Assembly (NCBI GenBank): GCA_965218495.1
Contig: OZ244626.1
Coordinates: forward strand, 1,273,122 to 1,337,121
From: Rhodothermales bacterium
Lineage (GTDB): Bacteria; Bacteroidota; Rhodothermia; Rhodothermales; Bin80
Direction of reading: 5' to 3'
Length of the DNA: 64,000 nt
In this document: in pieces, positions 17,266 to 31,466 of the stretch
How the letters are laid out: each line of letters begins with the position of its first letter
How positions within the stretch are numbered: position 1 is the stretch's first letter
Notes under the pieces: generated by a model
What the model was told of the DNA's origin: nothing
Databases searched by the model: none
Seen by the model: only the letters and a program-made list of their open reading frames with translations
Program-made: the position numbers and the translations under genes

Positions 17266-17361
17266 TAACCCGGATAAATCACCCGGGTGCGAAGAATTGG
17301 AACCCAAGCCCCACGTAAGTGTATGATTAATAATCATTTATAACCATCCTGTGCACTGCGC

Positions 17362-17724
17362 GTGAACAACACAGACTGTCATACTGAAGAGCTTCGTTTC
17401 GAGGACTTGGGGCGGCGTAAAGTGGTCGGAAAGTTCGACGGCGGCCCTATGTCCTCGGACGCAGGTGTTCTCTTGTTGCGGGAGGCCGACCGGATGTTCG
17501 ACGTCATAGGCCGTTTTGCCGCCTGCTTCACCGACCACCGTGATCCCAGCAGGGTCGAGCATACCGTGGAGGCGATGCTCAGGCAACGTGTCTACGCGAT
17601 ATGCTTGGGCTACGAAGACGTGAACGACCATGACCGTCTGCGGGACGATCCCGTGTTGGCCATGGGCGTGGGCTGCGAAGATGTAATAGGTGCGCACCGG
17701 GCACGGGAGCGCGACCAGGGACAT
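17362..17724 (+). CDS. IS1380 family transposase, exon 1 (121 codons)
   Basis: FDGGPMSSDAGVLLLREADRMFDVIGRFAACFTDHRDPSRVEHTVEAMLRQRVYAICLGYEDVNDHDRLRDDPVLAMGVG is the hallmark IS1380 N-terminus. The frame ends at the codon boundary before GTGTG. Confidence 0.8.
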
Positions 17725-18409
17725 GTGTGCCACGTAGTGGCGCGAAAGTGATGTTCTTTAACATAGCTTGAGTGTTGCGTAACTGCATTGAGGATGGAGG
17801 TAGGTCCTCCGCAGCCGCTGTGCAGGCGGAGGCTGCAAACCACCCACTGCTGCTGGGCTTTAAGGGTCTGGTGGTGAGCGAGCTGGGAAAAGGCGGAGCT
17901 ATGACTCTGTCAGGTGTGGATCGTAGAGTCGAACGCAAGTGAACCGCTGACTAAGTGTCGAAAGGTCTTAGACGATGTCAAAACCGGGGTTTATGTCCTG
18001 CTCCGGGACGAGGTCGGGGGCGACCTGCTTATTGCCCGATCGGCATCCGGCATGGAGGCGGCGAGAATGCGATCTGGGCCTCAATGCGGAACGTGGGAAC
18101 CTGTCGGGGCGATGCAAAGGGAGTGTCACAAGTGGAAGTCCCACAAGTGATTGAGTACCAATGCGCCCCACGGGGGCGGATCGGCTTGTAGTAGCGATGA
18201 AACGGGGTAATGCCCGTGGAGCGAAGAGGCCGACTCGGCTGGCTGACTGGATGAGGCAACCGCGTTGCGGGAGGACCTCACCTGCGAAGCAAGGGCTTGG
18301 TCGTTGGCTGGTCCAACGGCGGAGTGGGCCGAGAAGAGCCGTATGAGGCGAGAGTCTCACGTACGGTTCCGTGAGGGCCTGGGGGTGAAATTCCCCCGGG
18401 CTACTCGAC
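17725..18409 (+). mobile_element. ORF-less group II intron (intron Y, 685 nt)
   Basis: 5' GTGTG; domain V GAGCCGTATGAGGCGAGAGTCTCACGTACGGTTC at 18336-18369; domain-VI-like hairpin GGGCCTGGGGGTGAAATTCCCCCGGGCTACTCGAC with an unpaired A 7 nt from the end. No RT ORF, and the flanking exons join in frame. Confidence 0.8.
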
Positions 18410-19501
18410 CCGCTGGCGGGTTCGAGCACACTGAACCGACTGGAGCTCGGCTCCAAAGGAGGGGCCGCATCGCATAGGTACAAGCGCATCGTAGCGGACC
18501 CTGAAAAGATCGACACCATGCTCGCGGACTTGTTCATGGATGTAACGGGCGAGGAGCCAGAGCATATCGTGTTGGATCTCGATGCTACCGATGACGCGAT
18601 TCACGGCCAGCAGGAGGGGCGCTTCTTTCATGGTTACTATGGCCACTACTGCTACTTACCGCTGTACATCGTTAGCGGAAAGCATGTGTTGACCTCTCGT
18701 TTGCGCCCCTCCAACGTGGACGCATCAAAGGGTGCCATAGAGGAGTTAGCGCCGGTGGTAGCGCGTATCCGTGCGAGGTGGCGGCCGCACGTGCCGATCT
18801 GGGTTCGTGGAGACGCAGGCTTTTGCCGCGATGATATCATGGCATGGTGCGAAGCACAGGGCCTGCACTATATCTTTGGTATGGCTCGCAATGCGCGACT
18901 GAAACGCATCGTTGAGGAGGCTATGGAGCAGAGTCAGGCCACCTGCGAGGCCAGCGGGCAGCCTTCGCGGCGCTTCCGCAGCTTCGAGTACCAGACGAAG
19001 GACAGCTGGAGCTGTGCTCGGCGCGTGATAGCCAAGGCGGAATGGCTGCCTGGACCGCGCGGCTATAACGCGCGATTCGTGGTCACCAATTTCAGCGAAG
19101 ACGCGTACGACGCGCGCACGCTATACGAAGATTTGTATTGCGCGCGTGGAGACATGGAGAACCGGCTCAAGGAGCAGCAGCTTACCCTGTTCGCTGACCG
19201 CACCTCTACGTCCATGATGGAGAGCAACCAGTTGCGCCTGTACTTCTCTACGGTCGCCAACACCCTGATGACCATCATCAAGACCTTTGGCTTGCAGGGC
19301 ACCGCGATGGCGCAGGCGCAGTGCGCTACTATCCGTGTGCGGCTACTGAAGATCGCAGCACTGGTGGTGGTAAGCGTACGCCGAGTCCGCCTGCTCTTGC
19401 CCGAGGCCTATCCCTGGCAGCAACTGTTCGCGCGCGTGCTAAGCAACCTGCGCGGCGCTGTGCACACCACCCAGGTCGGCGCGCGCGCCTCACCTTCATA
19501 G
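18410..19501 (+). CDS. IS1380 family transposase, exon 2 (363 codons + stop)
   Basis: PLAGSSTLNRLELGSKGGAASHRYKRIVADPEKIDTMLADLF...IVLDLDATDDAIHGQQEGRFFHGYYGHYCYLPLYI...RLRPSNVDASKG...VRGDAGF. The frame is open from 18410, the same frame as ORF 18518-19501. Confidence 0.85.
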   Translation, partial: PLAGSSTLNRLELGSKGGAASHRYKRIVADPEKIDTMLADLFMDVTGEEPEHIVLDLDATDDAIHGQQEGRFFHGYYGHYCYLPLYIVSGKHVLTSRLRPSNVDASKGAIEELAPVVARIRARWRPHVPIWVRGDAGFCRDDIMAWCEAQGLHYIFGMARNARLKRIVEEAMEQSQATCEASGQPSRRFRSFEYQTKDSWSCARRVIAKAEWLPGPRGYNARFVVTNFSEDAYDARTLYEDLYCARGDMENRLKEQQLTLFADRTSTSMMESNQLRLYFSTVANTLMTIIKTFGLQGTAMAQAQCATIRVRLLKIAALVVVSVRRVRLLLPEAYPWQQLFARVLSNLRGAVHTTQVGARASPS

Positions 19502-19529
19502 GCACTTCCGGACCCGACTTACTCCACAG

Positions 19530-21305: not shown

Positions 21306-21553
21306 TACCTAGTGATTGCCCGAAAAAGGCCTATTGGGAGCAATATGCGGGCAGATTGTGGATGGGCGGTAAGCCTGTAGTCGCGGTCAGGGGTGTGCGC
21401 AAGGCGCGCAGCCCCCGAATATGAGTGGATTCGGCACAAATCCGTGGCCTTCAGCCAGCTTTTCATGCCATTGCACTACAAAGAGGATATAGGTTTGCGC
21501 TCTCCCCATTGCAAGGAGTCTGGCTTGCTCCCGTGACGGCGCTTGGTAGGGCC

Positions 21554-22036
21554 TTACTGCGCCCTACTGCGTGCCTGGTGCCACTTTCGTCGGCGCGCTT
21601 CCTTCTGCTTCAGAACCTGACCTATGCGGTGCACATTGGTGGCCACCACTACCAGTGCCAGCGTCCTGTCGAAGCCGGTCTTGCCATGGGTGCGCACTAG
21701 TGCCATCCCCCGGTGATGGAGGTTATTGATCGCCGACTCTACGGCCGGGTGTTGACGCCGGGCTGCCACGAAGTCCGGATGGGTCTCCCGTTCGCGGTCC
21801 GCTTCACGGAGCCGCCCCTTTCGGGGCATCACGTTTAGGTCCAACAACTTGTCAAGCTGCTCGCGATTCTCTGGCGTGTAAAACCCCTTGTCCATACTGC
21901 ATGATGCCAGCGCCGGGTAGCGCCGCTTCGCCTCTGCAAGGAACGGCACGATCATGTCCTGGTCGCCACCTTCGTGTTGCACGTAGTGGCGCAGAATGAA
22001 TTGGTGCTGATCCTCCAGCACGCACACCGGTACCCC
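21554..22036 (-). CDS. ISNCY-like transposase, exon 2 (160 codons + stop)
   Basis: GVPVCVLEDQHQFILRHYVQHEGGDQDMIVPFLAEAKRRYPALASCSMDKGFYTPENREQL...HPAVESAINNLHHRGMALV is the C-terminal DDE part. The N-terminal 207 codons of ORF 21554-22657 are intron read-through. Confidence 0.8.
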   Translation of the reverse strand, partial: GVPVCVLEDQHQFILRHYVQHEGGDQDMIVPFLAEAKRRYPALASCSMDKGFYTPENREQLDKLLDLNVMPRKGRLREADRERETHPDFVAARRQHPAVESAINNLHHRGMALVRTHGKTGFDRTLALVVVATNVHRIGQVLKQKEARRRKWHQARSRAQ

Positions 22037-22704
22037 ATCCCGGTAGCCCCCAGGTTTCCCCGGGGGCCCCGGACAGATCCGGACGTGCGCGCTAACGCAT
22101 CCGGCTCCTCCCTTGGGTCGCGCTGCCGCGCATGACGTTAGCAGGTCGGCAAGCCGACCCGCAGCCGTAACCGATTCATCCCTGGGACGCGCAAAATCCG
22201 GCACTGAGTCCGGTACGTGTGGGACTGCACGATTTCCCCTTGGGTGCGACGCTTCGCTCCACTGACTCCGCCACGAGGGCACCCCCGCTTTGTTCGTCGG
22301 CTTCACAGCTACGTATCGTCGCATCTGACTTCTCCTTGCCGTACGTCCTCCGCTCGGCTTTCGCCTTGGCTTTGGCGGCCCCGCCCGTAGCGCTGGGCAA
22401 CAAGAAGATCTCCCAGGTCCCAGCAGGATATGTACATGCGTCCATGGGGTCCCGGACACCGTGGGCCTGTCCGCCGTCTCACCATAACGATGACGGACAT
22501 GTTGCCTTCGACCGAGCTGAAAGCCTCGGCGACCCAGATTACATGTTTTTCGGTGCTCAATAACCCTGGCCACACGCACCGCTACCGACGCTTCGCGCCC
22601 ACCCTCACGGGTGGCCACGCACGGCTCGCGGAGATATGTACCTGGTTTCAGTTTCATAACACGGGACTTTCACCCGCTATATCCTGCCAGTTAGCCTGGC
22701 GCAC
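22037..22704 (-). mobile_element. ORF-less group II intron (intron X, 668 nt)
   Basis: On the minus strand: 5' GTGCGCCAGGCTAACTGGCAGG...; domain V-like GAGCCGGATGCGTTAGCGCGCACGTCCGGATC (22076-22107); domain-VI-like CCGGGGCCCCCGGGGAAACCTGGGGGCTACCGGGAT ending ...AT. No RT ORF, and the exons join in frame. Confidence 0.75.
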
Positions 22705-23646
22705 CAACTCTGCCATCACGCCCGCCTTCCCTTTGTCGATCCAGCGCGTGTGGGGCTCATGCACGGAGAAGAGCTTCTGGCCGTGCGGAATCTTCTCGCC
22801 CTTGATCAAACGGCGCGACACCTGGTCTATCAGCTGCTCTCCAGTCCGCAAATACCACGACACCTCCGCGCTTTCAACATCGTTTTGCCTCAATATCGCC
22901 TGCGTGGCCGCTGCCTTCGACACGATAGTGCGGCAAAGTGCCAGGTAGTTTGCCACTTTCGACGTACTACGCCACTGCCGGGAAGTGCGCACGCGATAAA
23001 AGGCGCGCTCCATTTTCTTGATCCAGGCCTGCGACTTGCGCCAGCCCGCTATCGCATGCTGTTGGCAAAGACGCGCCAGCTTCCTGATCAGACGGCGCAG
23101 CGCATCCCACAGCAAACGGACATCGGTGGGCCACTCCACATGGGTCTTCGCAACCGCTGAGTCGGCCCGGCAGTGAAGCGGATCCGATGACCTGTGCTTC
23201 AACAGCTGATGCCCACGGGCCACCACCACCGCATTGATCTGCCGCAGCGCTTCCTCGGTAAGCAGACGCACGTTGTCAATAACGGTCTGCAGGCGATACT
23301 GGTGCTTATCTCCAAAATCTGCATGCCCCAGCATCTGGCGCAACGCCGTGTGAAAGTTCGCCAATTCCACCAGACGGTCGAAGTCGCAGTCGAGCGCCTT
23401 CTGCAGCGTGCCCAGCACGAAGATCCGCCACAGGCACAGGCCCGGGCGACCACGCCGCAAATTGACCTTCGCGCCTAACTGCTCCCGCAGAATCGCGAAC
23501 ACCCGCTCGCGGGTCTCGCGGTGCGTGAAGATGTCCTGCAGTCCACGCAGTACGGCCGGAATATCGTCTCTGGACCGAGCGTCAAAGCTGATCTCTCCAA
23601 TGGGCGTGTGCCCAAGCTCAAACTGTGGCTCGAAGATCGCGCGCAT
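22705..23646 (-). CDS. ISNCY-like transposase, exon 1 (314 codons)
   Basis: MRAIFEPQFELGHTPIGEISFDARSRDDIPAVLRGLQDIF...RADSAVAKTHVEWPTDVRLLWDA...FSVHEPHTRWIDKGKAGVMAEL. The last codon TTG ends at 22705, directly before GTGCG. Confidence 0.8.
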
Positions 23647-23888
23647 GGCAGTAAATCGGGCGAATGTTGGGGCAGAAGCGTACTAATCACGCCAATAACG
23701 GTACTAAGATCGGAAAACGGCGCAACATTCGCTAAAACAATGCAGGCAGCCGTTGGGGAAACTGCCCCGAAAACAGCCGCTCGACACTCCAAAATGCCCG
23801 ATTTTCCGCCGCACGCGCCCGTACATCCGCCCTATGCGCCCAAGACTGCCGGTCTGCAGAGCCGATCAGGCATTTTTCGGGCAAGCAC

Positions 23889-23986
23889 TACCTATGCGAT
23901 GCGGCCCCTCCTTTGGAGCCGAGCTCCAGTCGGTTCAGTGTGCTCGAACCCGCCAGCGGGTCGAGTAGCCCGGGGGAATTTCACCC
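23889..23986 (-). other. IS1380-B exon 2 proximal 71 nt plus the last 27 nt of intron Y
   Basis: The reverse complement is identical to copy A 18383-18480 (GGGTGAAATTCCCCCGGGCTACTCGAC|CCGCTGGCGGG...CGCATAGGTA). It is bounded by the IS4-like element on one side and the ISNCY-like element on the other. Confidence 0.8.
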
Positions 23987-25487
23987 ATAAGCGCTAACTT
24001 GTTTAAATACTGGGGAAATAGCGTTCAACTTGGTTAATTCTAGCTCTTGGAGGCGCAGCCAACATTCCCGAGATTTCGGGCCATTGCTCGATCATCTCGG
24101 CCAAGGAGAACCCTGGCTCAATCGCCTGCCCGACTTGGTTGAGGGCGAATTTGAATTCCCTCCATGTACTGGGTGTGCGCCCGCACATCATAGCCCCAGG
24201 GGGAAAGTGTCCGTGCGTGACGGACGATCTTTTCGGTCAACAGCGCGACCAGTAACTTCCCGTATAGCCAAGCTTTCGCGCTCTCGTCATCGAATTTCGG
24301 CAGGTGGCCCAGCTGGGCTAACGATTTGAAACGCTTAAACACCAGTTCAACCTGCCAGCGTAGTCGGTACCACTCGAGCACAGCGGTCGCTGAAAACTTC
24401 TCCGTTGGGAAGGTGGTGAATAAGATGACGTACCGGGCGTAACGCAAGGTTTCTTCCCGTGGCTTCTTTCCCTTCCGCTGAGCAGTCTGATAAATCTTGG
24501 TATGCGCCTCTTCCATCGCTTCATCCGTTTTACGAAGCGCACAGATACGGCCCTTCACGGGGGTCTCTGCCTTGACGGCTGCGGTCCAGACTCCCACAGC
24601 CCCAGCCTGCAGTAAGGACTCCACCGACGCTAACAGGTCAATGGGCTGGCCGGATTCCGTCTCAAAGCGCAGCGCACCTGTGTTCACGCGCACCGTCACG
24701 TAGCCGCCGGCTGTCTCCACATGTTGAATTCCAGAACCGGTCGCATAGCCGCGGTCCGCCAGTATGTAGTCACCCGCACGGACGGGAAATTGCTTGAATG
24801 ATTCACCCGTGCCCGCCCCCTTCGTTCCAGTTAACTTGAAAAAATCACAGCCTAGTGAAGGCAGGGTAACACTGTAATGCAACCGCCACATTGATCCCGT
24901 GCGGCCAGGCTCCCGTACTACGGTAGCATCGAACGCCCGTACTTGCAGCCCCTCGCTGGCAGATACCTCAATGCCATGCTCCTTAAATAGCTCCATGCAT
25001 AATGCGTAGAGCCAGTTCCGTGACTTCTGCAGCCGCTTGAGCAGGGCTACGTCCGATAAGTCGGCCAGATGAGCCTGGCGCGCTCGCACGACGGTCTCCC
25101 GCAGTGAGTGCCCGCATCTCCAAGTGGATCAGCAGCGTCCGCAAGAGGTTTTCCGGTGACTTATCCTTACGCAGCCCGCGCAGTGCGCCGGTATTCACGG
25201 CCAGTTGCTGCCAATTCGCAGGCAAGAACGACGCCAACACGCCCCAGTCCTTGTCAGCTGGCGCTCTGGTAACGGTTCCCTTCATCAGGCGTCAATCGTT
25301 TAGCGACGAAGTAGCGACATATTTATCCCGATCATGGGTGCACAGGATGGTAGATGGCCCGACCTTTGTGATTCCCAGTGCACGAAATTGTCTACTGCAA
25401 GCGGCATCGGTGTTCCCGGTTACCTCGACTCCAGGTAAACCAAAGCAACATACAGGAATCGTGTCAGATAAACAAGTTAGCGCTTAT
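23987..25487 (-). mobile_element. IS4-family insertion sequence (~1.5 kb)
   Basis: Perfect terminal inverted repeats of about 19-21 bp ((CC)ATAAGCGCTAACTTGTTTA at 23985/23987 and its reverse complement ending 25487/25489). One transposase gene. Confidence 0.85.
24118..25285 (-). pseudogene. IS4 family transposase, one frameshift near 25090-25125
   Basis: ORF 24983-25285 (MKGTVTRAP...LLRTLLIHL) continues in another frame as ...GHSLRETVVRARQAHLADLSDVALLKRL... (24118-25089). DDE context DATVV / LADRGY and the signature YRLRWQVELVFKRFK (Y-2-R-3-E-6-K). Confidence 0.8.
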
Positions 25488-25488
25488 G

Positions 25489-25812
25489 GCGGTACGCCCC
25501 CGGCTGGCCCGCCTTGGGAATACGGTGCGCGCGGACCGGCTGGGGCGTGTAGGTGCCGTCTTTGAGCTCCTGATGCATACGCTCCAGGTTCGCTTCAAGC
25601 GATGCCTCGAACGTCGCCAGGGTCTCTCCGTCCACACCGCCCGCCCCCCGTCCTTGCTTCACCTTCTTCCAGGCCAACTCCAGATTCTTCCGCTTGTACA
25701 CCTTGTCCACTAACGAGTGGACCTTCCGCTCACCTGTTGGATTGAGCCAATGTGACAGTCTCCTGGGCCGATGATGTACGGGTCTTTCACTAAAGGAACT
25801 GTTCCACCTCAT
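25489..25812 (-). pseudogene. group II intron reverse transcriptase/maturase, N-terminal fragment only
   Basis: SLVDKVYKRKNLELAWKKVKQGRGAGGVDGETLATFEASLEANLERMHQELKDGTYTPQPVRAHRIPKAGQPGAYR (RT domains 0-2), then runs into the IS4 terminal repeat (..HKR*). The start codon is uncertain. Confidence 0.75.
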
Positions 25813-25926
25813 CGACTTTACTCGCTGATCGCAATCTCTCCATTCCAAACCACCTTTGCCGACTGCCTTCCCCGACCCACCCGGCCGCCGCTTGCGCGGT
25901 CACCCGACTTTCGACGGGCTTGTGGT
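25767..25926. repeat. 160-bp direct repeat, copy 1 (inside intron Z)
   Basis: Identical by eye to 26135-26294 (offset 368 bp). Lower-identity homology continues ~55 bp further down (25712-25766 vs 26080-26134). Confidence 0.85.
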
Positions 25927-26134
25927 GTCGGGTCGGAGGAGGCGCCCCGAAGGGCTAACCTCCGTCCGCCGCTCAAACGGCTCGTACGGTTTTCCCGTAA
26001 GCCGCTTTCACAAAGGTGTCTCGTGGAGGGTTCAAGGAAGGTTTCAGTGGAATCAATCGTACATGGCCGTACTCCACTGTGGTGTAGACCTTCCTCTCCC
26101 CTGTTGGATTGTGCCCAATGCGACAGTCTCCTCA

Positions 26135-26294
26135 GCCGATGATGTACGGGTCTTTCACTAAAGGAACTGTTCCACCTCATCGACTTTACTCGCTGATCGC
26201 AATCTCTCCATTCCAAACCACCTTTGCCGACTGCCTTCCCCGACCCACCCGGCCGCCGCTTGCGCGGTCACCCGACTTTCGACGGGCTTGTGGT
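26135..26294. repeat. 160-bp direct repeat, copy 2 (inside intron Z)
   Basis: See 25767-25926. This repeat explains the duplicated ORF prefixes MEWRDCDQRVKSMRWNSSFSERPVHH in ORFs 25477-25848 and 25818-26216. Confidence 0.85.
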
Positions 26295-26804
26295 ACTATG
26301 CAGTCGTCCGACGACTCGCCACGCATCCGTTCCCACTTCCCCTTACGGGTTATAGGGGCTGTTATCCCGGTGCCACCCGGGAACGTGACGAGCCCTCCTG
26401 GGGTCACTGCCAGATCTTCCGTACCGTGCCGTTCGCACACACCTTGGTACGACGGGTGGATAAGAACGCCTTCGCCGCCATAGTGCCGGCTCGACCTTGC
26501 CCCGTCTTTGGCCGACCGATTCGTCCGTGGGGTCGCCCCCTTGACTACGGCCCGGTACTGCTCCGCAAGCCCTTCAGATTCCACCTCGCGGTGGACACCC
26601 TGCCCTCCGGTTGTCTCGCGACAATGTCCCGACTTAGCGCCTGTCTTGGCTGTTTCCGTCGTTTCCAACTCGGTGCCCGTTTAGACCTTTGCTTATCGGT
26701 ACATCCCGGCCGACGAGGCATTACCCCCGTCTTTGGATATGGCACCCCCTATCCGGGCGCCAGTGGGACTTGAACCCACCTGATCTGGGCGCTGCCCAGC
26801 ACAC

Positions 26805-27272
26805 ACTACAAGCCGATCCGCCCCCGTGGGGCGCATTGGTACTCAATCACTTGTGGGACTTCCACTTGTGACACTCCCTTTGCATCGCCCCGACAGGTTC
26901 CCACGTTCCGCATTGAGGCCCAGATCGCATTCTCGCCGCCTCCATGCCGGATGCCGATCGGGCAATAAGCAGGTCGCCCCCGACCTCGTCCCGGAGCAGG
27001 ACATAAACCCCGGTTTTGACATCGTCTAAGACCTTTCGACACTTAATCAGCGGTTCACTTGCGTTCGACTCTACGATCCACACCTGACAGAGTCATAGCT
27101 CCGCCTTTTCCCAGCTCGCTCACCACCAGACCCTTAAAGCCCAGCAGCAGTGGGTGGTTTGCAGCCTCCGCCTGCACAGCGGCTGCGGAGGACCTACCTC
27201 CATCCTCAATGCAGTTACGCAACACTCAAGCTATGTTAAAGAACATCACTTTCGCGCCACTACGTGGCACAC
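26805..27272 (-). mobile_element. intron Y, 5' 468 nt (copy in IS1380-B)
   Basis: The reverse complement is colinear with 17725-18192 with no indels. One substitution is inferred from the T/I difference between the shadow ORFs 17914-18150 and 26847-27083. Confidence 0.85.
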
Positions 27273-27635: not shown

Positions 27636-27731
27636 GCGCAGTGCACAGGATGGTTATAAATGATTATTAATCATACACTTACGTGGGGCTTGGGTTCCAA
27701 TTCTTCGCACCCGGGTGATTTATCCGGGTTA

Positions 27732-28265: not shown

Positions 28266-31200
28266 ATGAAAGGACTCAGACTGACCGCTATCGCCGTAGT
28301 GGCGATCATGTTTTTACCGCTTGCCATCACGCTATTGCCGGACGCTCCGACTCCCGATTCGGTGTCAGATCCTCTGGCATTCCGATCCGAGAAGTCCCGA
28401 ATGGTGTCAAGCCCGCAGGGCCACCCGAACCTGTTTTTCGAGTATTTCAGAGACATCAGGGCATCGGAAGACGGTGAAGTCGAGTACCCGCCGGGCTATC
28501 GGTATACTGAGTATAAGAAGGCAATGGCAACTGCGAAGACTTCTGGAGGCACGCTCAACTGGGTGGAGCGAGGCCCTGGCAACGTTGGCGGACGAACGCG
28601 TCCTCTACTAGTCGATCCGGATGATCCAGACTTGCACACGTGGTGGGCTGGTTCCGTGGCCGGCGGCCTGTGGAAGACCATTAACGGAGGGTTGGCATGG
28701 CAGTACCAAACGGATGACCTGCCAGTCATGTCGGTCACCAGCCTGGCGATGGCGGAGAGTAATCACGACGTCATCTACATGGGCACCGGTGAAGGCTATG
28801 GCAATATTGACGGCGTAGATGGTAATGGAATCTTTAGGTCCACTGACAGAGGAGTGACTTGGGAGCACTTGGCCGCTACCACCGCGAACGCTGATTTCCG
28901 ACATGTAAACCGGTTGGCCGTTGATTCTGCGAATCCGGATGTGGTAGTGGCCGCTACCGGTGCAGGCATATTTCGCACCACCGATGGAGGCATGTCCTGG
29001 ACCGAAGTATACGAGGGGCCGGGGCGCGTGCAGGACTTGCGCGCACAGCCGGGCAACTTCAGTATGCAGATAGCTGGTGTAGACGGTAATGGAATACTCT
29101 ACTCCACAGACGCTGGCATGACGTGGGAATTCTCCTCCGTAGTCTGGACTAGCGGCTTAGGTCGCATTGAACTAGCATATTCAACGTCCCATCCCAGTAT
29201 CGCGTATGCTGCCGTCGACGGAAGCACCGCTGCACTCTATCGAAGTAGCGATGGTGGCGTAAATTGGGCACCGACCGTAGATTCATCCCCCTTCCCCTTT
29301 TCTTGGCTCGGGTTCCAAGGCTGGTACGATAACACGCTGGCGGTGCATCCATTTAAGCCTGACACGGTGTTTGTTGGAGGAATATTTTTGTGGCGAAACA
29401 TTCTATCCGGGGAAACCATAACCGTGTCTGGACCTTCCGAATTCAGCTACGGTGGCGCTGAGTCGTGGCTTAATTTCGTTAACTTTGGTGCGTCTGCTTT
29501 TGGCGGCACCCTGTCTTACCTGGATCTAGATGCCATTGATGTGTCAGAGGCGGACTACAACAACATTGAGATCCGATTTGGTCAAGGAATGCAGAAGGCG
29601 CACCGCTTCTGGGTTTCCGAAACCGCTGGCACATTCGGAAATGGCGGCTCAGGCATCCCGTTCAGCGAGTTCATGTACGCGGACTACGTTGACGTTCCAT
29701 TGCAAGTGTGGGATATCGATAACAACCGTCAGCTGAATTTCTCCTTCCGCGATCAAGCCGACGATGGCGAATTCAACCTGATTGAATTCTTCTCGTCAGA
29801 GGATCCGGGCACGCGCGATACGCAGAGTCGCGAGTACATGTTCATTCACAAATCTGATTACGACGCAACTAATCCACAGGACAGCATCGCCCAAGATGGC
29901 GGCCTGGTGCATGGAATGCTGTACTTCATGTGGCCTACGCTTCTTGACTCCACTGCCACATGGGACCCGATGAACCTGCCTAACCAGACCCTTTCAATTT
30001 CGTATAGCGTTACCGAAGGCCTTGGTCGAACACTAGACGGTGAAATCGATCCTAACAGCAACACGCACGTGGATCACCACAATATATTGCCAATCCCAAT
30101 TAACGCTGCACAAAATGAGTTCTGGATCTTAAATGCCAACGACGGTGGCGTAGCAGTGTCTACGGACGGCGGCCAGTCTTTCAGAGAAGCGGATAACGCA
30201 TTTGCGGGCTACAACACCGCGCAATTCTACGGAGTGGCGAAAAAGCCCGGTAGCCCCATTTACATCGCCGGATCGCAGGATAACGGAACATGGCGGTCTT
30301 TCGGCAATCCAAATAACAGGCGTGGGTGGATATTTGCGCTTGGCGGCGACGGTTTTGAGACGATATGGCACGCTACTGATCCAGACAGGATTATGGGATC
30401 GATTCAATTCAATAATATTTTGCGAACTGTCAACGGTGGCGTCAGCTGGCAGTCCACAGCGGCGGGTGGGCTCGGAGCCGGGCAGTTTATTACCACACTT
30501 GCTAGCTCCGATATGGCACCCAACAATGTATACACTAGCAATGCCAATGGCGTGGCGTATTCCAGAGATTTTGGAGCGACCTGGACCTTGACCTCAATCA
30601 CTGAAAGCTGGGGGTTTTGGTCAGGTGGCAAAGTTAGGGTATCTATTGCGGACTCGAACGTGGTTTGGGCAGGATATGGCTTGGACTCCAGCCCCAACCG
30701 TAAGCTGCACATCTCGAGGGATCAAGGGGTGTCGTTCGAAGCGGTGGCCTTGCCTACCATGAATCGGGCGCCCGAGACGATTATTTCCGGGCTGGCTACG
30801 CATCCTACCGAGAGCGGCACTGCGTATGCGCTGTTCTCACGCTACGGCTACGCAAGGGTCCTGGAAACAAAGGATTACGGGCAGACGTGGACTGATCTTT
30901 CAAGCTTTGATACGACGGGAGCAAGCACGAATGGCTTTCCTGATGTGGCCGTTCACGACCTGCTGGTGATGCCGCATGCAACGAATGTGTTGTGGGCAGG
31001 CACTGACATTGGCCTTTTCAAGTCTAAGAGCTACGGCAAGGAGTGGAACTACGCGCACAACGGCCTGCCGGCAGTCTCCGTTTGGCGAATGAAGTTTCGC
31101 GATGATGAGGTCATCCTAGGTACGCATGGCCGTGGCGTATGGACCGTGCCGGCTAGCGAGATTGACGTCGCAATAGAGGAGGAGTCGGCGGAGTTGCCGT

Positions 31201-31466
31201 CTGGATTCAGCCTCGCTCCGAACTATCCGAATCCCTTTAACGCCTCCACCACCATCCAATTCAAGGTGCCGAGCGAAGCACGAGTACGACTGACTGTCTT
31301 TGATGCAATCGGACGGAAGGTGTCCGTGCTGACCGACAGGGTTTACCCTCCTGGAGAGTACGACTTGAACTGGAACGCCAACGACTTCGCGAGCGGTGTC
31401 TACTTCTATCGCATGGAATCAGAAGGCAAGCTCATCCACACGCACAAGATGACACTGGTGAAGTAG
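28266..31466 (+). CDS. secreted Asp-box/BNR-repeat (sortilin/VPS10-like beta-propeller) protein with T9SS C-terminal sorting domain
   Basis: 1066 aa with a signal-like N-terminus. Repeated SxDxGxTW-type boxes (STDRGVTWE, TTDGGMSWT, STDAGMTWE, SSDGGVNWA, STDGGQSF, SRDFGATWT, TKDYGQTWT). The C-terminus NYPNPFNASTTIQFKVP...VYFYRMESEGKLIHTHKMTLVK matches the Por/T9SS CTD pattern. Confidence 0.85.
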   Translation: MKGLRLTAIAVVAIMFLPLAITLLPDAPTPDSVSDPLAFRSEKSRMVSSPQGHPNLFFEYFRDIRASEDGEVEYPPGYRYTEYKKAMATAKTSGGTLNWVERGPGNVGGRTRPLLVDPDDPDLHTWWAGSVAGGLWKTINGGLAWQYQTDDLPVMSVTSLAMAESNHDVIYMGTGEGYGNIDGVDGNGIFRSTDRGVTWEHLAATTANADFRHVNRLAVDSANPDVVVAATGAGIFRTTDGGMSWTEVYEGPGRVQDLRAQPGNFSMQIAGVDGNGILYSTDAGMTWEFSSVVWTSGLGRIELAYSTSHPSIAYAAVDGSTAALYRSSDGGVNWAPTVDSSPFPFSWLGFQGWYDNTLAVHPFKPDTVFVGGIFLWRNILSGETITVSGPSEFSYGGAESWLNFVNFGASAFGGTLSYLDLDAIDVSEADYNNIEIRFGQGMQKAHRFWVSETAGTFGNGGSGIPFSEFMYADYVDVPLQVWDIDNNRQLNFSFRDQADDGEFNLIEFFSSEDPGTRDTQSREYMFIHKSDYDATNPQDSIAQDGGLVHGMLYFMWPTLLDSTATWDPMNLPNQTLSISYSVTEGLGRTLDGEIDPNSNTHVDHHNILPIPINAAQNEFWILNANDGGVAVSTDGGQSFREADNAFAGYNTAQFYGVAKKPGSPIYIAGSQDNGTWRSFGNPNNRRGWIFALGGDGFETIWHATDPDRIMGSIQFNNILRTVNGGVSWQSTAAGGLGAGQFITTLASSDMAPNNVYTSNANGVAYSRDFGATWTLTSITESWGFWSGGKVRVSIADSNVVWAGYGLDSSPNRKLHISRDQGVSFEAVALPTMNRAPETIISGLATHPTESGTAYALFSRYGYARVLETKDYGQTWTDLSSFDTTGASTNGFPDVAVHDLLVMPHATNVLWAGTDIGLFKSKSYGKEWNYAHNGLPAVSVWRMKFRDDEVILGTHGRGVWTVPASEIDVAIEEESAELPSGFSLAPNYPNPFNASTTIQFKVPSEARVRLTVFDAIGRKVSVLTDRVYPPGEYDLNWNANDFASGVYFYRMESEGKLIHTHKMTLVK

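Follow-up and report, generated by a model that had tools for sequence, protein, structure and literature searches.

What lies beyond the point at which one copy of a group II intron abruptly ceases to match another? The question is raised by a 64,000-nt stretch of the genome of a Rhodothermales bacterium (assembly GCA_965218495.1, contig OZ244626.1, positions 1,273,122 to 1,337,121; the whole stretch is referred to below as the window), which holds two copies, A and B, of an intron without an open reading frame (ORF), here termed Y. Copy B breaks off at window position 26805, and the initial annotation read the sequence from 26804 to 25488 as a full-length intron (Z), encoding a reverse transcriptase (RT), that had homed into Y. 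According to the analysis described here, mobile group II introns once formed a nest in this region, of which a remnant survives, and the locus has a four-step history; to this statement, taken whole, a probability of about 0.7 can be attached. Its parts differ in strength. The structure alone, in which a Z-family intron forms a twintron with Y and comprises a complete ORF-less intron (Z-mini) followed by a fragment of a full-length Z (Z-full) cut by an insertion sequence (IS), is highly probable; the specific four-step history is rated somewhat better than even.

An intron with its own ends inside intron Y

Copy A provides the limits of Y. It lies in an IS1380-like element (17266-19529, plus strand), and both of its exon ORFs match DDE_Tnp_1_4. 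The same IS without the intron, 91% identical to copy A, is present in a Rhodothermales metagenome-assembled genome (MAG; locus L029, 547-2111). Because this intron-less copy joins A 17724 straight to A 18410, with the exons in frame (...RERDQGH^PLAGSSTLNRLE; a caret marks a junction here and below), it fixes both boundaries of Y given in Table 1, with GTGTG at the 5′ end. An alternative 5′ end at GTGCG 17690 was discarded, since the transposase exons would then be out of frame; the empty copy in L029 moved the start to GTGTG 17725. In an Rfam scan copy A matched RF01999 at 17796-17915 (104 bits) and RF00029 at 18334-18409 (63.5 bits), domain V occupying 18334-18367.

Copy B, on the minus strand, follows copy A closely up to the break. 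Positions 27731 to 26805 are 99.9% identical to A 17266-18192 over 927 nt, and the Y portion taken separately (26805-27272 against A 17725-18192) is likewise 99.9% identical. Both copies of Y start with GTGTGCC..., copy A at 17725 and copy B at 27272, and RF01999 recurs in copy B at 27201 to 27082 (104 bits). The match ends after ...GGCTTGTAGT, from where copy A reads AGCGATGAAACGGGG and copy B reads GTGTGCTGGGCAGCGCCCAGATCAGGTGGG (also given as GTGTGCTGGGCAGCGCC...), opening with a GTGTG intron start at 26804. Both the break at 26805 and the GUGYG start next to it had been noticed in the initial annotation, and both are confirmed. Copy B resumes its match at B 23986, equivalent to A 18383, and is 100% identical from there on (A 18383-18480, B 23986-23889). 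It is without 190 nt of Y (A 18193-18382, Y nt 469-658), domain V included, so the insertion is not a clean one. Having no domain V, copy B of Y is predicted to be dead and unable to splice.

The sequence past the break belongs to a family whose ends recur elsewhere. A search with the 82-aa RT fragment as protein query returned only fragments of 144 aa or less, and led to two metagenome contigs (L001, L002) that have the 5′ end GTGTGCTGGGCAGCGCC in common; their upstream flanks differ, all ending in GTAGT. With the conserved Z 5′ end as query, a scan that sampled one genome per species contributed 58 loci (L003-L060), giving 60 with L001 and L002. The exact Z ends GTGTGCTGGG…CCGACCCGAC recur in about 60 loci. 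The first 17 nt, with the GUGYG terminus represented by GTGTG at 26804, are identical in 60/60 loci beside unrelated flanks, which amount to 47 distinct 20-nt sequences. Wherever the 3′ end can be read, in 31 loci, the terminus is TCCTCCGACCCGAC and gives way to host sequence. Intact copies with defined ends, which the initial annotation had proposed to look for, exist: full-length members measure 2024-2029 nt and ORF-less derivatives (minis) 878-916 nt, among them copies of 914-916 nt in Bryobacterales and the 878-nt type in Rhodothermales L029. In full-length Z, domains I-III occupy nt 1-510 and a segment termed R nt 511-690; the intron-encoded protein (IEP) starts at about nt 625 and is followed by domains V and VI. 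The IEP of the full-length member L024 has 452 aa, with RVT_1 (1.7e-43) and GIIM (1.4e-19) and no endonuclease domain, and its best sequence matches in the PDB are the GsI-IIC RT (6AR1, E 2e-64) and 7UIM (E 3e-61).

Three segments of full-length Z can be recognized in the window by blastn against L024: nt 1-731 (26804 to 26073), nt 1881-2029 (26075 to 25927) and nt 511-948 (25926 to 25489). The first two are fused and make up Z-mini, the 3′ end of which reads ...CCGACCCGAC at 25927; a near-twin of the 878-nt type, 98-99% identical, lies inside a Y-like intron in L029. The third is the Z-full fragment, 97.9% identical to L024 nt 511-948, and begins at the next base. As a result of this layout segment R is present twice, as a 180-nt direct repeat (R1, 26294 to 26115; R2, 25926 to 25747; 98% identical, spaced 368 nt). 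R1 bears a remnant of the IEP start codon (IEP residues 1-32 at 26180 to 26082 by tblastn). The 188 nt between R1 and R2 fold into three parts in a single-sequence prediction (z = -5.1), namely a hairpin, a domain V-like hairpin and domain VI.

The proposal that the sequence past 26805 is a separate group II intron stands; that of a single full-length copy with a 1.1-kb leader does not, given relatives of 2024-2029 nt in which the IEP starts at about nt 625. What had been regarded as a plain non-coding leader contains the 180-nt repeat pair together with domains V and VI ending at 25927. The group II RT N-terminus read there is borne out: IEP residues 1-108, at 25812 to 25489, are 100% identical (tblastn) to those of a full-length relative, which carries RVT_1 and GIIM. 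The frame from ATG 25812 is cut at 25489, after 108 codons, by an IS with perfect 21-bp terminal inverted repeats (TIRs; 23985-24005 and 25469-25489) and transposase ORFs at 25285 to 24983 and 25089 to 24118 (DDE_Tnp_1, E 8e-16). The end coordinate of the initial annotation, 25488/9, is the position of this TIR. The IS is flanked on the left by codon 108 of the Z IEP and on the right by domain VI of Y, and there is no target-site duplication. With the Z RT on one flank and domain VI of Y on the other, a deletion or IS-IS recombination should have removed what lay between; beyond the IS, the remainder of Z is absent along with the 190 nt of Y.

Table 1. Positions of the features discussed, in window coordinates
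Feature	Position	Strand	Description
Intron Y, copy A	17725-18409	+	Intact ORF-less intron, 685 nt, inside IS1380-like transposase gene
Intron Y, copy B, nt 1-468	26805-27272	-	5′ GTGTGCC at 27272; end ...GGCTTGTAGT, the 5′ exon and intron-binding site 1 (IBS1) for Z
Z-mini	25927-26804	-	Complete 878-nt ORF-less group II intron, GTGTGCTGGG...CCTCCGACCCGAC
Exon-binding site 1 (EBS1), Z-mini	26479-26484	-	ACUAUG (Z nt 321-326) in 9-nt hairpin loop; partner IBS1 UGUAGU of Y (26805-26810)
R1	26115-26294	-	Domain IVa segment of Z-mini (Z nt 511-690); repeat finder and alignment
Domain V, Z-mini	25975-26007	-	33-nt hairpin AAGCGGCUUACGG-GAAAA-CCGUA-CG-AGCCGUUU; AGC triad, 2-nt CG bulge
Domain VI, Z-mini	25927-25970	-	Bulged A at 25933, 7 nt before 3′ end; terminus ...CGAC at 25927
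Full-length Z fragment	25490-25926	-	Z nt 511-948: R2 (25926 to 25747), then IEP from ATG 25812 to codon 108
Insertion sequence	23985-25489	-	About 1505 bp, perfect 21-bp TIRs, split DDE transposase; interrupts Z IEP
Last 27 nt of Y, copy B	23960-23986	-	3′ half of domain VI, ...GGGCTACTCGAC

The ribozyme assignment of Z is supported by covariation. The consensus fold of nt 1-515 contains 150 pairs, 26 of them with a compensatory change, and the stem closing the EBS1 loop covaries. Three pairs covary in domain V of the family alignment, and all 13 aligned members have the bulged A of domain VI 7 nt from the 3′ end. At the homologous 3′ end of L058, RF00029 scores 40.6 bits against a threshold of 40, the only locus to reach it. 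The domain I helix predicted for the consensus closes columns 2-418, a span of about 400 nt.

Introns of class C (IIC) have a small domain I and a short (3-4 nt) IBS1, and insert just after a terminator or attC hairpin. Z does not look like a member of this class: the predicted domain I of about 400 nt, the 6-bp EBS1-IBS1 pairing and targets in the coding sequence of intron IEPs speak against it. The IIC likeness of Z is limited to the nearest PDB relatives of its IEP and is at odds with the ribozyme.

To judge from these alignments and folds, Z is a real, separate mobile group II intron, with a ribozyme and an endonuclease-less IEP of the RT/maturase type. Z-mini alone is predicted to retain every ribozyme part, along with an A at +1 and an EBS1 that matches IBS1 in its 5′ exon, and could still splice or move given a Z IEP made elsewhere in the genome; the predicted ligated product of its excision is ...GUAGU^ACCACAAG. 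The Z IEP of the window, at 108 codons, would be dead, and no intact RT was detected within the window by tblastn with the IEP of a full-length relative. The initial annotation suggested that the Z maturase could act as a trans helper for ORF-less introns, a role that the truncated ORF of this copy could not fill. If a family Z IEP is encoded elsewhere, Z-mini is a more plausible client for it than Y, by analogy with Thermosynechococcus elongatus (PMC2882425): Z-mini retains the domain IVa segment R, and Y shares none of it. From 27272 to 23960 the window is predicted to hold dead mobile-element debris with no functional maturase gene.

Family Z is found in MAGs labeled Alphaproteobacteria, Rhodothermales, Bryobacterales, Entotheonella, Chloroflexota, Gammaproteobacteria and Myxococcales, with nucleotide identities of 82-89% across Z-bearing MAGs in the 5′ 510 nt. 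Rhodothermales contig OZ253559.1 shares 99% identity with the window across the first 510 nt and 100% across the RT N-terminus. The MAG names (Entotheonella, RHO3_bin, CAR1_bin) hint at sponge microbiomes, and with them at horizontal spread inside a single habitat. On OZ253559.1 four Z copies (L009, L036, L045, L055) have the same 45-nt Y-like 5′ flank; three are of full-length type and L009 has only Z nt 1-79. The shared flank suggests either spread of the composite as one unit or repeated re-invasion by Z.

Target site and host introns

Over the 47 distinct 5′ flanks the target consensus at positions -6 to -1 is C-R-T-A-G-T, and EBS1 is complementary to the corresponding UGUAGU of Y. Among 39 distinct combinations of site and intron, pairing is present in 96% of the EBS1/IBS1 cells, and in 5 cells both sides change; none of 500 shuffles (0/500) reach the observed values, and slid controls give 12-68%. 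The compensatory changes fall at -2 and -3, examples being CGTACT/AGTATG, CATGGT/ACCATG, TGTAAT/ATTATG and CTTATT/AATATG. Complementarity of both EBS1 and EBS2 to Y had been proposed as a check on homing; EBS1 passes it, with covariation, while the EBS2 candidate is without covariation support. Positions -13 to -7 of the target differ among copies with identical introns.

Joining the flanks without Z gives ...(E/K)SDSAIV^AMKxANKG, the N-terminal extension of the RTs of other group II introns. In 10/18 loci scanned, the Rfam signature of a host intron lies just upstream on the same strand (RF02005, RF02003, RF02001 or RF01999; type D1D4-6, D1D4-4, D1D4-3 or D1D4-2). In silico deletion of Z restores ORFs of 492-505 aa, and intact host IEPs result in L007, L028, L039 and L044, the L028 ORF matching RVT_1 and GIIM. 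In L024, L032, L050 and L029 both Z junctions lie inside a Y-like outer intron. A minority of Z sites are not intron-like. The recurrent ends, the varied flanks and the restored hosts uphold the view that Z is a mobile intron that homed into Y. Most Z hosts are, as far as these reconstructions go, other group II introns, interrupted at about codon 12 of the RT gene, and full-length and ORF-less Z both occur as inner introns.

The Y site in the window conforms to this pattern. The 5′ junction, Y nt 468^Z nt 1, lies inside the outer intron, and copy A holds the empty site between 18192 and 18193 (CTTGTAGT^AGCGATG), which translates as LVV^AMKRGNARGAK (longer, ADRLVV^AMKRGNARGAK), an IEP N-terminal remnant. 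On the 3′ side the window departs from a twintron, as Z-mini runs into Z nt 511 and 190 nt of Y have been lost. Y-like copies in L009 (2600-3125) and L055 (7545-7999) are unoccupied as well. A further site is internal to Z itself: nt 493-511, GTCGGACGACTGCATAGT^A, reads SSDDCIV^PQ and fits the family target consensus. It is the only match to the target pattern in the window, and the Z-full fragment begins exactly there, at nt 510^511, after Z-mini.

Z may represent an undescribed, hyperparasitic lineage of group II introns that homes on the (E/K)SD..IV stretch of IEPs in at least four unrelated host families and in itself, spread horizontally, perhaps in the sponge habitat, with the window a snapshot of nesting and collapse; the odds for and against this wider interpretation are about equal.

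The nest and how it may have formed

The mechanism proposed starts from the EBS1 loop of Z (ACUAUG), which would pair with C-R-T-A-G-T in DNA, a sequence recurrent where the (E/K)SD..IV^A.K..N motif of other intron RTs is encoded. Because of this pairing, Z would home near codon 12 of other IEPs, or into ORF-less remnants of them such as Y. At this locus a full-length Z would have retrohomed into Y at nt 468^469. Z-mini, ORF-less and mobilized in trans by a Z IEP, would then have retrohomed into the internal site of Z-full at nt 510^511, placing two near-identical 510-nt Z 5′ segments side by side. Collapse of these to one, by homologous recombination or during cDNA integration, would leave Y5′-Zmini-Zfull(511 onward). 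Finally, after insertion of an IS in the Z IEP, the rest of Z and 190 nt of Y would have been lost, either by a deletion next to the IS or by recombination of two IS copies. The sequences themselves show the element boundaries, the family, the target motif, the EBS1-IBS1 pairing and the truncations; the order of the steps, the collapse and any present activity are inferences from them.

Several observations weigh against this account or parts of it. RF00029 does not detect domain V of Z-mini in the window, with no match there at E<=1, and RF02001 (D1D4-3) covers Z in the window over the full model length with 24.8 bits (26.7 in L001, 22.3 in L002), all below the threshold of 32. The EBS2 candidate AUCUGA (nt 226-231) lies opposite YCRGAY at -17 to -12, an unusual spacing, with no convincing covariation. 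An intact Z-in-Z nest was sought without success in the 60 loci, and its 5′ and 3′ junctions had 0 matches in two metagenome scans. Diagnostic differences between the full and mini copies of the related Rhodothermales MAG reveal no clean chimera in the Z 5′ segment; the diagnostic sites in this search for a recombination footprint are too few, and the sole other Rhodothermales mini (L029) is diverged. R2 combines mini-type with full-type sequence in a mosaic, which leaves room for gene conversion or some other route; gene conversion as the origin of the arrangement, like an assembly collapse across the repeated Z segments, is given a low to moderate probability.

Assembly is the source of one of the rival explanations, in which repeated Z copies were collapsed or mis-joined to create the Z-mini/Z-full junction. 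Repeats that are nearly identical (Z, Y and IS copies) abound in the genome, and the arrangement turned up neither in the other loci nor in the two junction scans. Mis-joining through shared sequence would, however, produce a standard Z-full or Z-mini; a Z-mini 3′ end fused to Z nt 511 would arise in this way only where a real Z-in-Z nest is present somewhere, and the flanking layout is coherent (IS, deletion, and a second IS with a 6-bp duplication), so an artefact is considered improbable. Marginally more credible, but still unlikely, is a one-step template switch, in which the RT retrohoming Z-full into Y met a broken 5′ end of the Z RNA at nt 511, changed template to the 3′ terminus of a free Z-mini RNA and continued copying as far as the Y 5′ exon. 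Group II RTs are capable of end-to-end template switching. A switch of this kind would account for a junction consisting of the last Z-mini nucleotide followed by Z nt 511 and would be in keeping with the lack of a tandem Z-in-Z nest in the 60 loci and both junction scans. It demands, however, that the RNA break coincide with the homing site, a position that nested homing explains without coincidence.

Two explanations dispense with a second intron insertion altogether. The pair of 180-nt direct repeats 368 nt apart might reflect replication slippage, with a single Z-full in Y later undergoing a 368-nt internal tandem duplication. The 188 nt between the repeats are, however, not a copy of neighboring sequence but the 3′-terminal segment of Z (nt 1881-2029: ORF end, domains V and VI), which in full-length members sits about 1.15 kb further on; the second repeat starts exactly at the family 3′ end and the nt 511 homing site, and an independent mini with the same deletion is found in L029. 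Slippage is accordingly very hard to credit. Hardest of all to sustain, and contradicted by the sequences, is the case that had been set out as a refutation of the twintron, in which the sequence past the break is the ancestral domain IV/IEP region of Y, making Y and its downstream sequence one full-length intron and copy A an internal-deletion derivative. The break does fall in the domain IV region of Y, the usual place of an IEP, and Y holds an IEP N-terminal remnant there. Nevertheless, the sequence past the break opens with a GUGUG of its own and possesses separate domains I-III, V and VI; Z keeps the same pair of ends in at least four types of host intron and at some non-intron sites; the Y remnant reads through the empty site of copy A, as it does in L024 and L032 after removal of Z; and the Y-like copies in L009 and L055 are unoccupied. 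Successive homing of Z-full and Z-mini, followed by collapse, remains the preferred reading of the locus.

Other mobile elements surround the nest. The IS1380-like copy B is itself interrupted at 21312-23888 (minus strand) by a 2577-bp insertion with a 6-bp duplication, TAGGTA (A 18475-18480 on both sides), which looks like another IS. Its gene (ORFs 23646 to 22654 and the tail of 22657 to 21554; no Pfam match) is split by a third ORF-less group II intron at 22670 to 22037, which has RF02005 at 22670 to 22447 (161 bits) and a weak, sub-threshold domain V at 22109 to 22037 (34.5 bits). At 22300-22335 (minus strand) this intron contains an IEP N-terminal remnant, EKSDATIRS..., with a degenerate, unoccupied Z site, CGTAGC^T. 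The repeat finder also detected direct repeat pairs at 2-207/16806-17011 (206 nt, 99%) and 30922-31177/37827-38082 (256 nt, 76%). A 1066-aa ORF (28266-31466, plus strand) adjoins the mobile-element cluster, and its C-terminus may resemble a type IX secretion sorting domain, a feature that would suit an origin in Rhodothermales or Bacteroidota.

Comparison with known nested introns

Bacterial twintrons are few. Homing at the start of an IEP has been worked out in one cyanobacterium (PMC2882425), and nested homing into other introns has been described in one archaeon (PMC4424553). Family Z offers many natural replicates: 47 distinct target flanks, four host types, and inner introns that are either full-length or ORF-less. 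Occupied and empty sites coexist within genomes, and the EBS1-IBS1 code can be read straight from the sequences. The family could be used to ask how an intron lives on other introns, whether it lowers expression of the host-intron IEP, and how nests resolve.

The closest parallel is provided by the twintrons of T. elongatus, in which ORF-less TeI3 lies inside TeI4 introns (Mohr, Ghanem & Lambowitz 2010, PMC2882425). There too, the host is another group II intron, entered in domain IV a few codons past the start of its IEP ORF by an ORF-less derivative; ORF-less copies arise by internal deletion of ORF-containing relatives and are mobilized in trans, and one IEP is interrupted by an IS. That system is confined to one genome and to related intron families, whereas Z occupies at least four host types (D1D4-2, -3, -4 and -6) across distant MAG labels; Z moreover has both full-length and ORF-less inner forms, and is known here from sequence alone.

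The nested group II introns of Methanosarcina acetivorans (Dai & Zimmerly 2003), as summarized by Zimmerly & Semper (2015, PMC4424553), likewise involve repeated homing into introns, with nests trimmed by homologous recombination between copies, and the layout of Z-mini and Z-full fragment in the window fits such a process. In that summary the flanking exons have no housekeeping function. The Methanosarcina nests are archaeal, with up to five nested introns visible, while the window holds a collapsed nest with an IS and a deletion, in which recombination is inferred. The Trichodesmium erythraeum twintron, as outlined in its report (Pfreundt & Hess 2015, PMC4649490), is a bacterial intron within an intron as well; sequential splicing is described there, in contrast to the window, whose outer intron is without domain V. 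On the protein side, the GsI-IIC RT (6AR1) and 7UIM resemble the Z IEP in being a compact RT and maturase without an endonuclease domain, but the Z ribozyme is not class C-like, with a domain I of about 400 nt and a 6-bp EBS1-IBS1 pairing that defines its site. Set beside these systems, the window locus is a new example of a known phenomenon and not a new kind of element.

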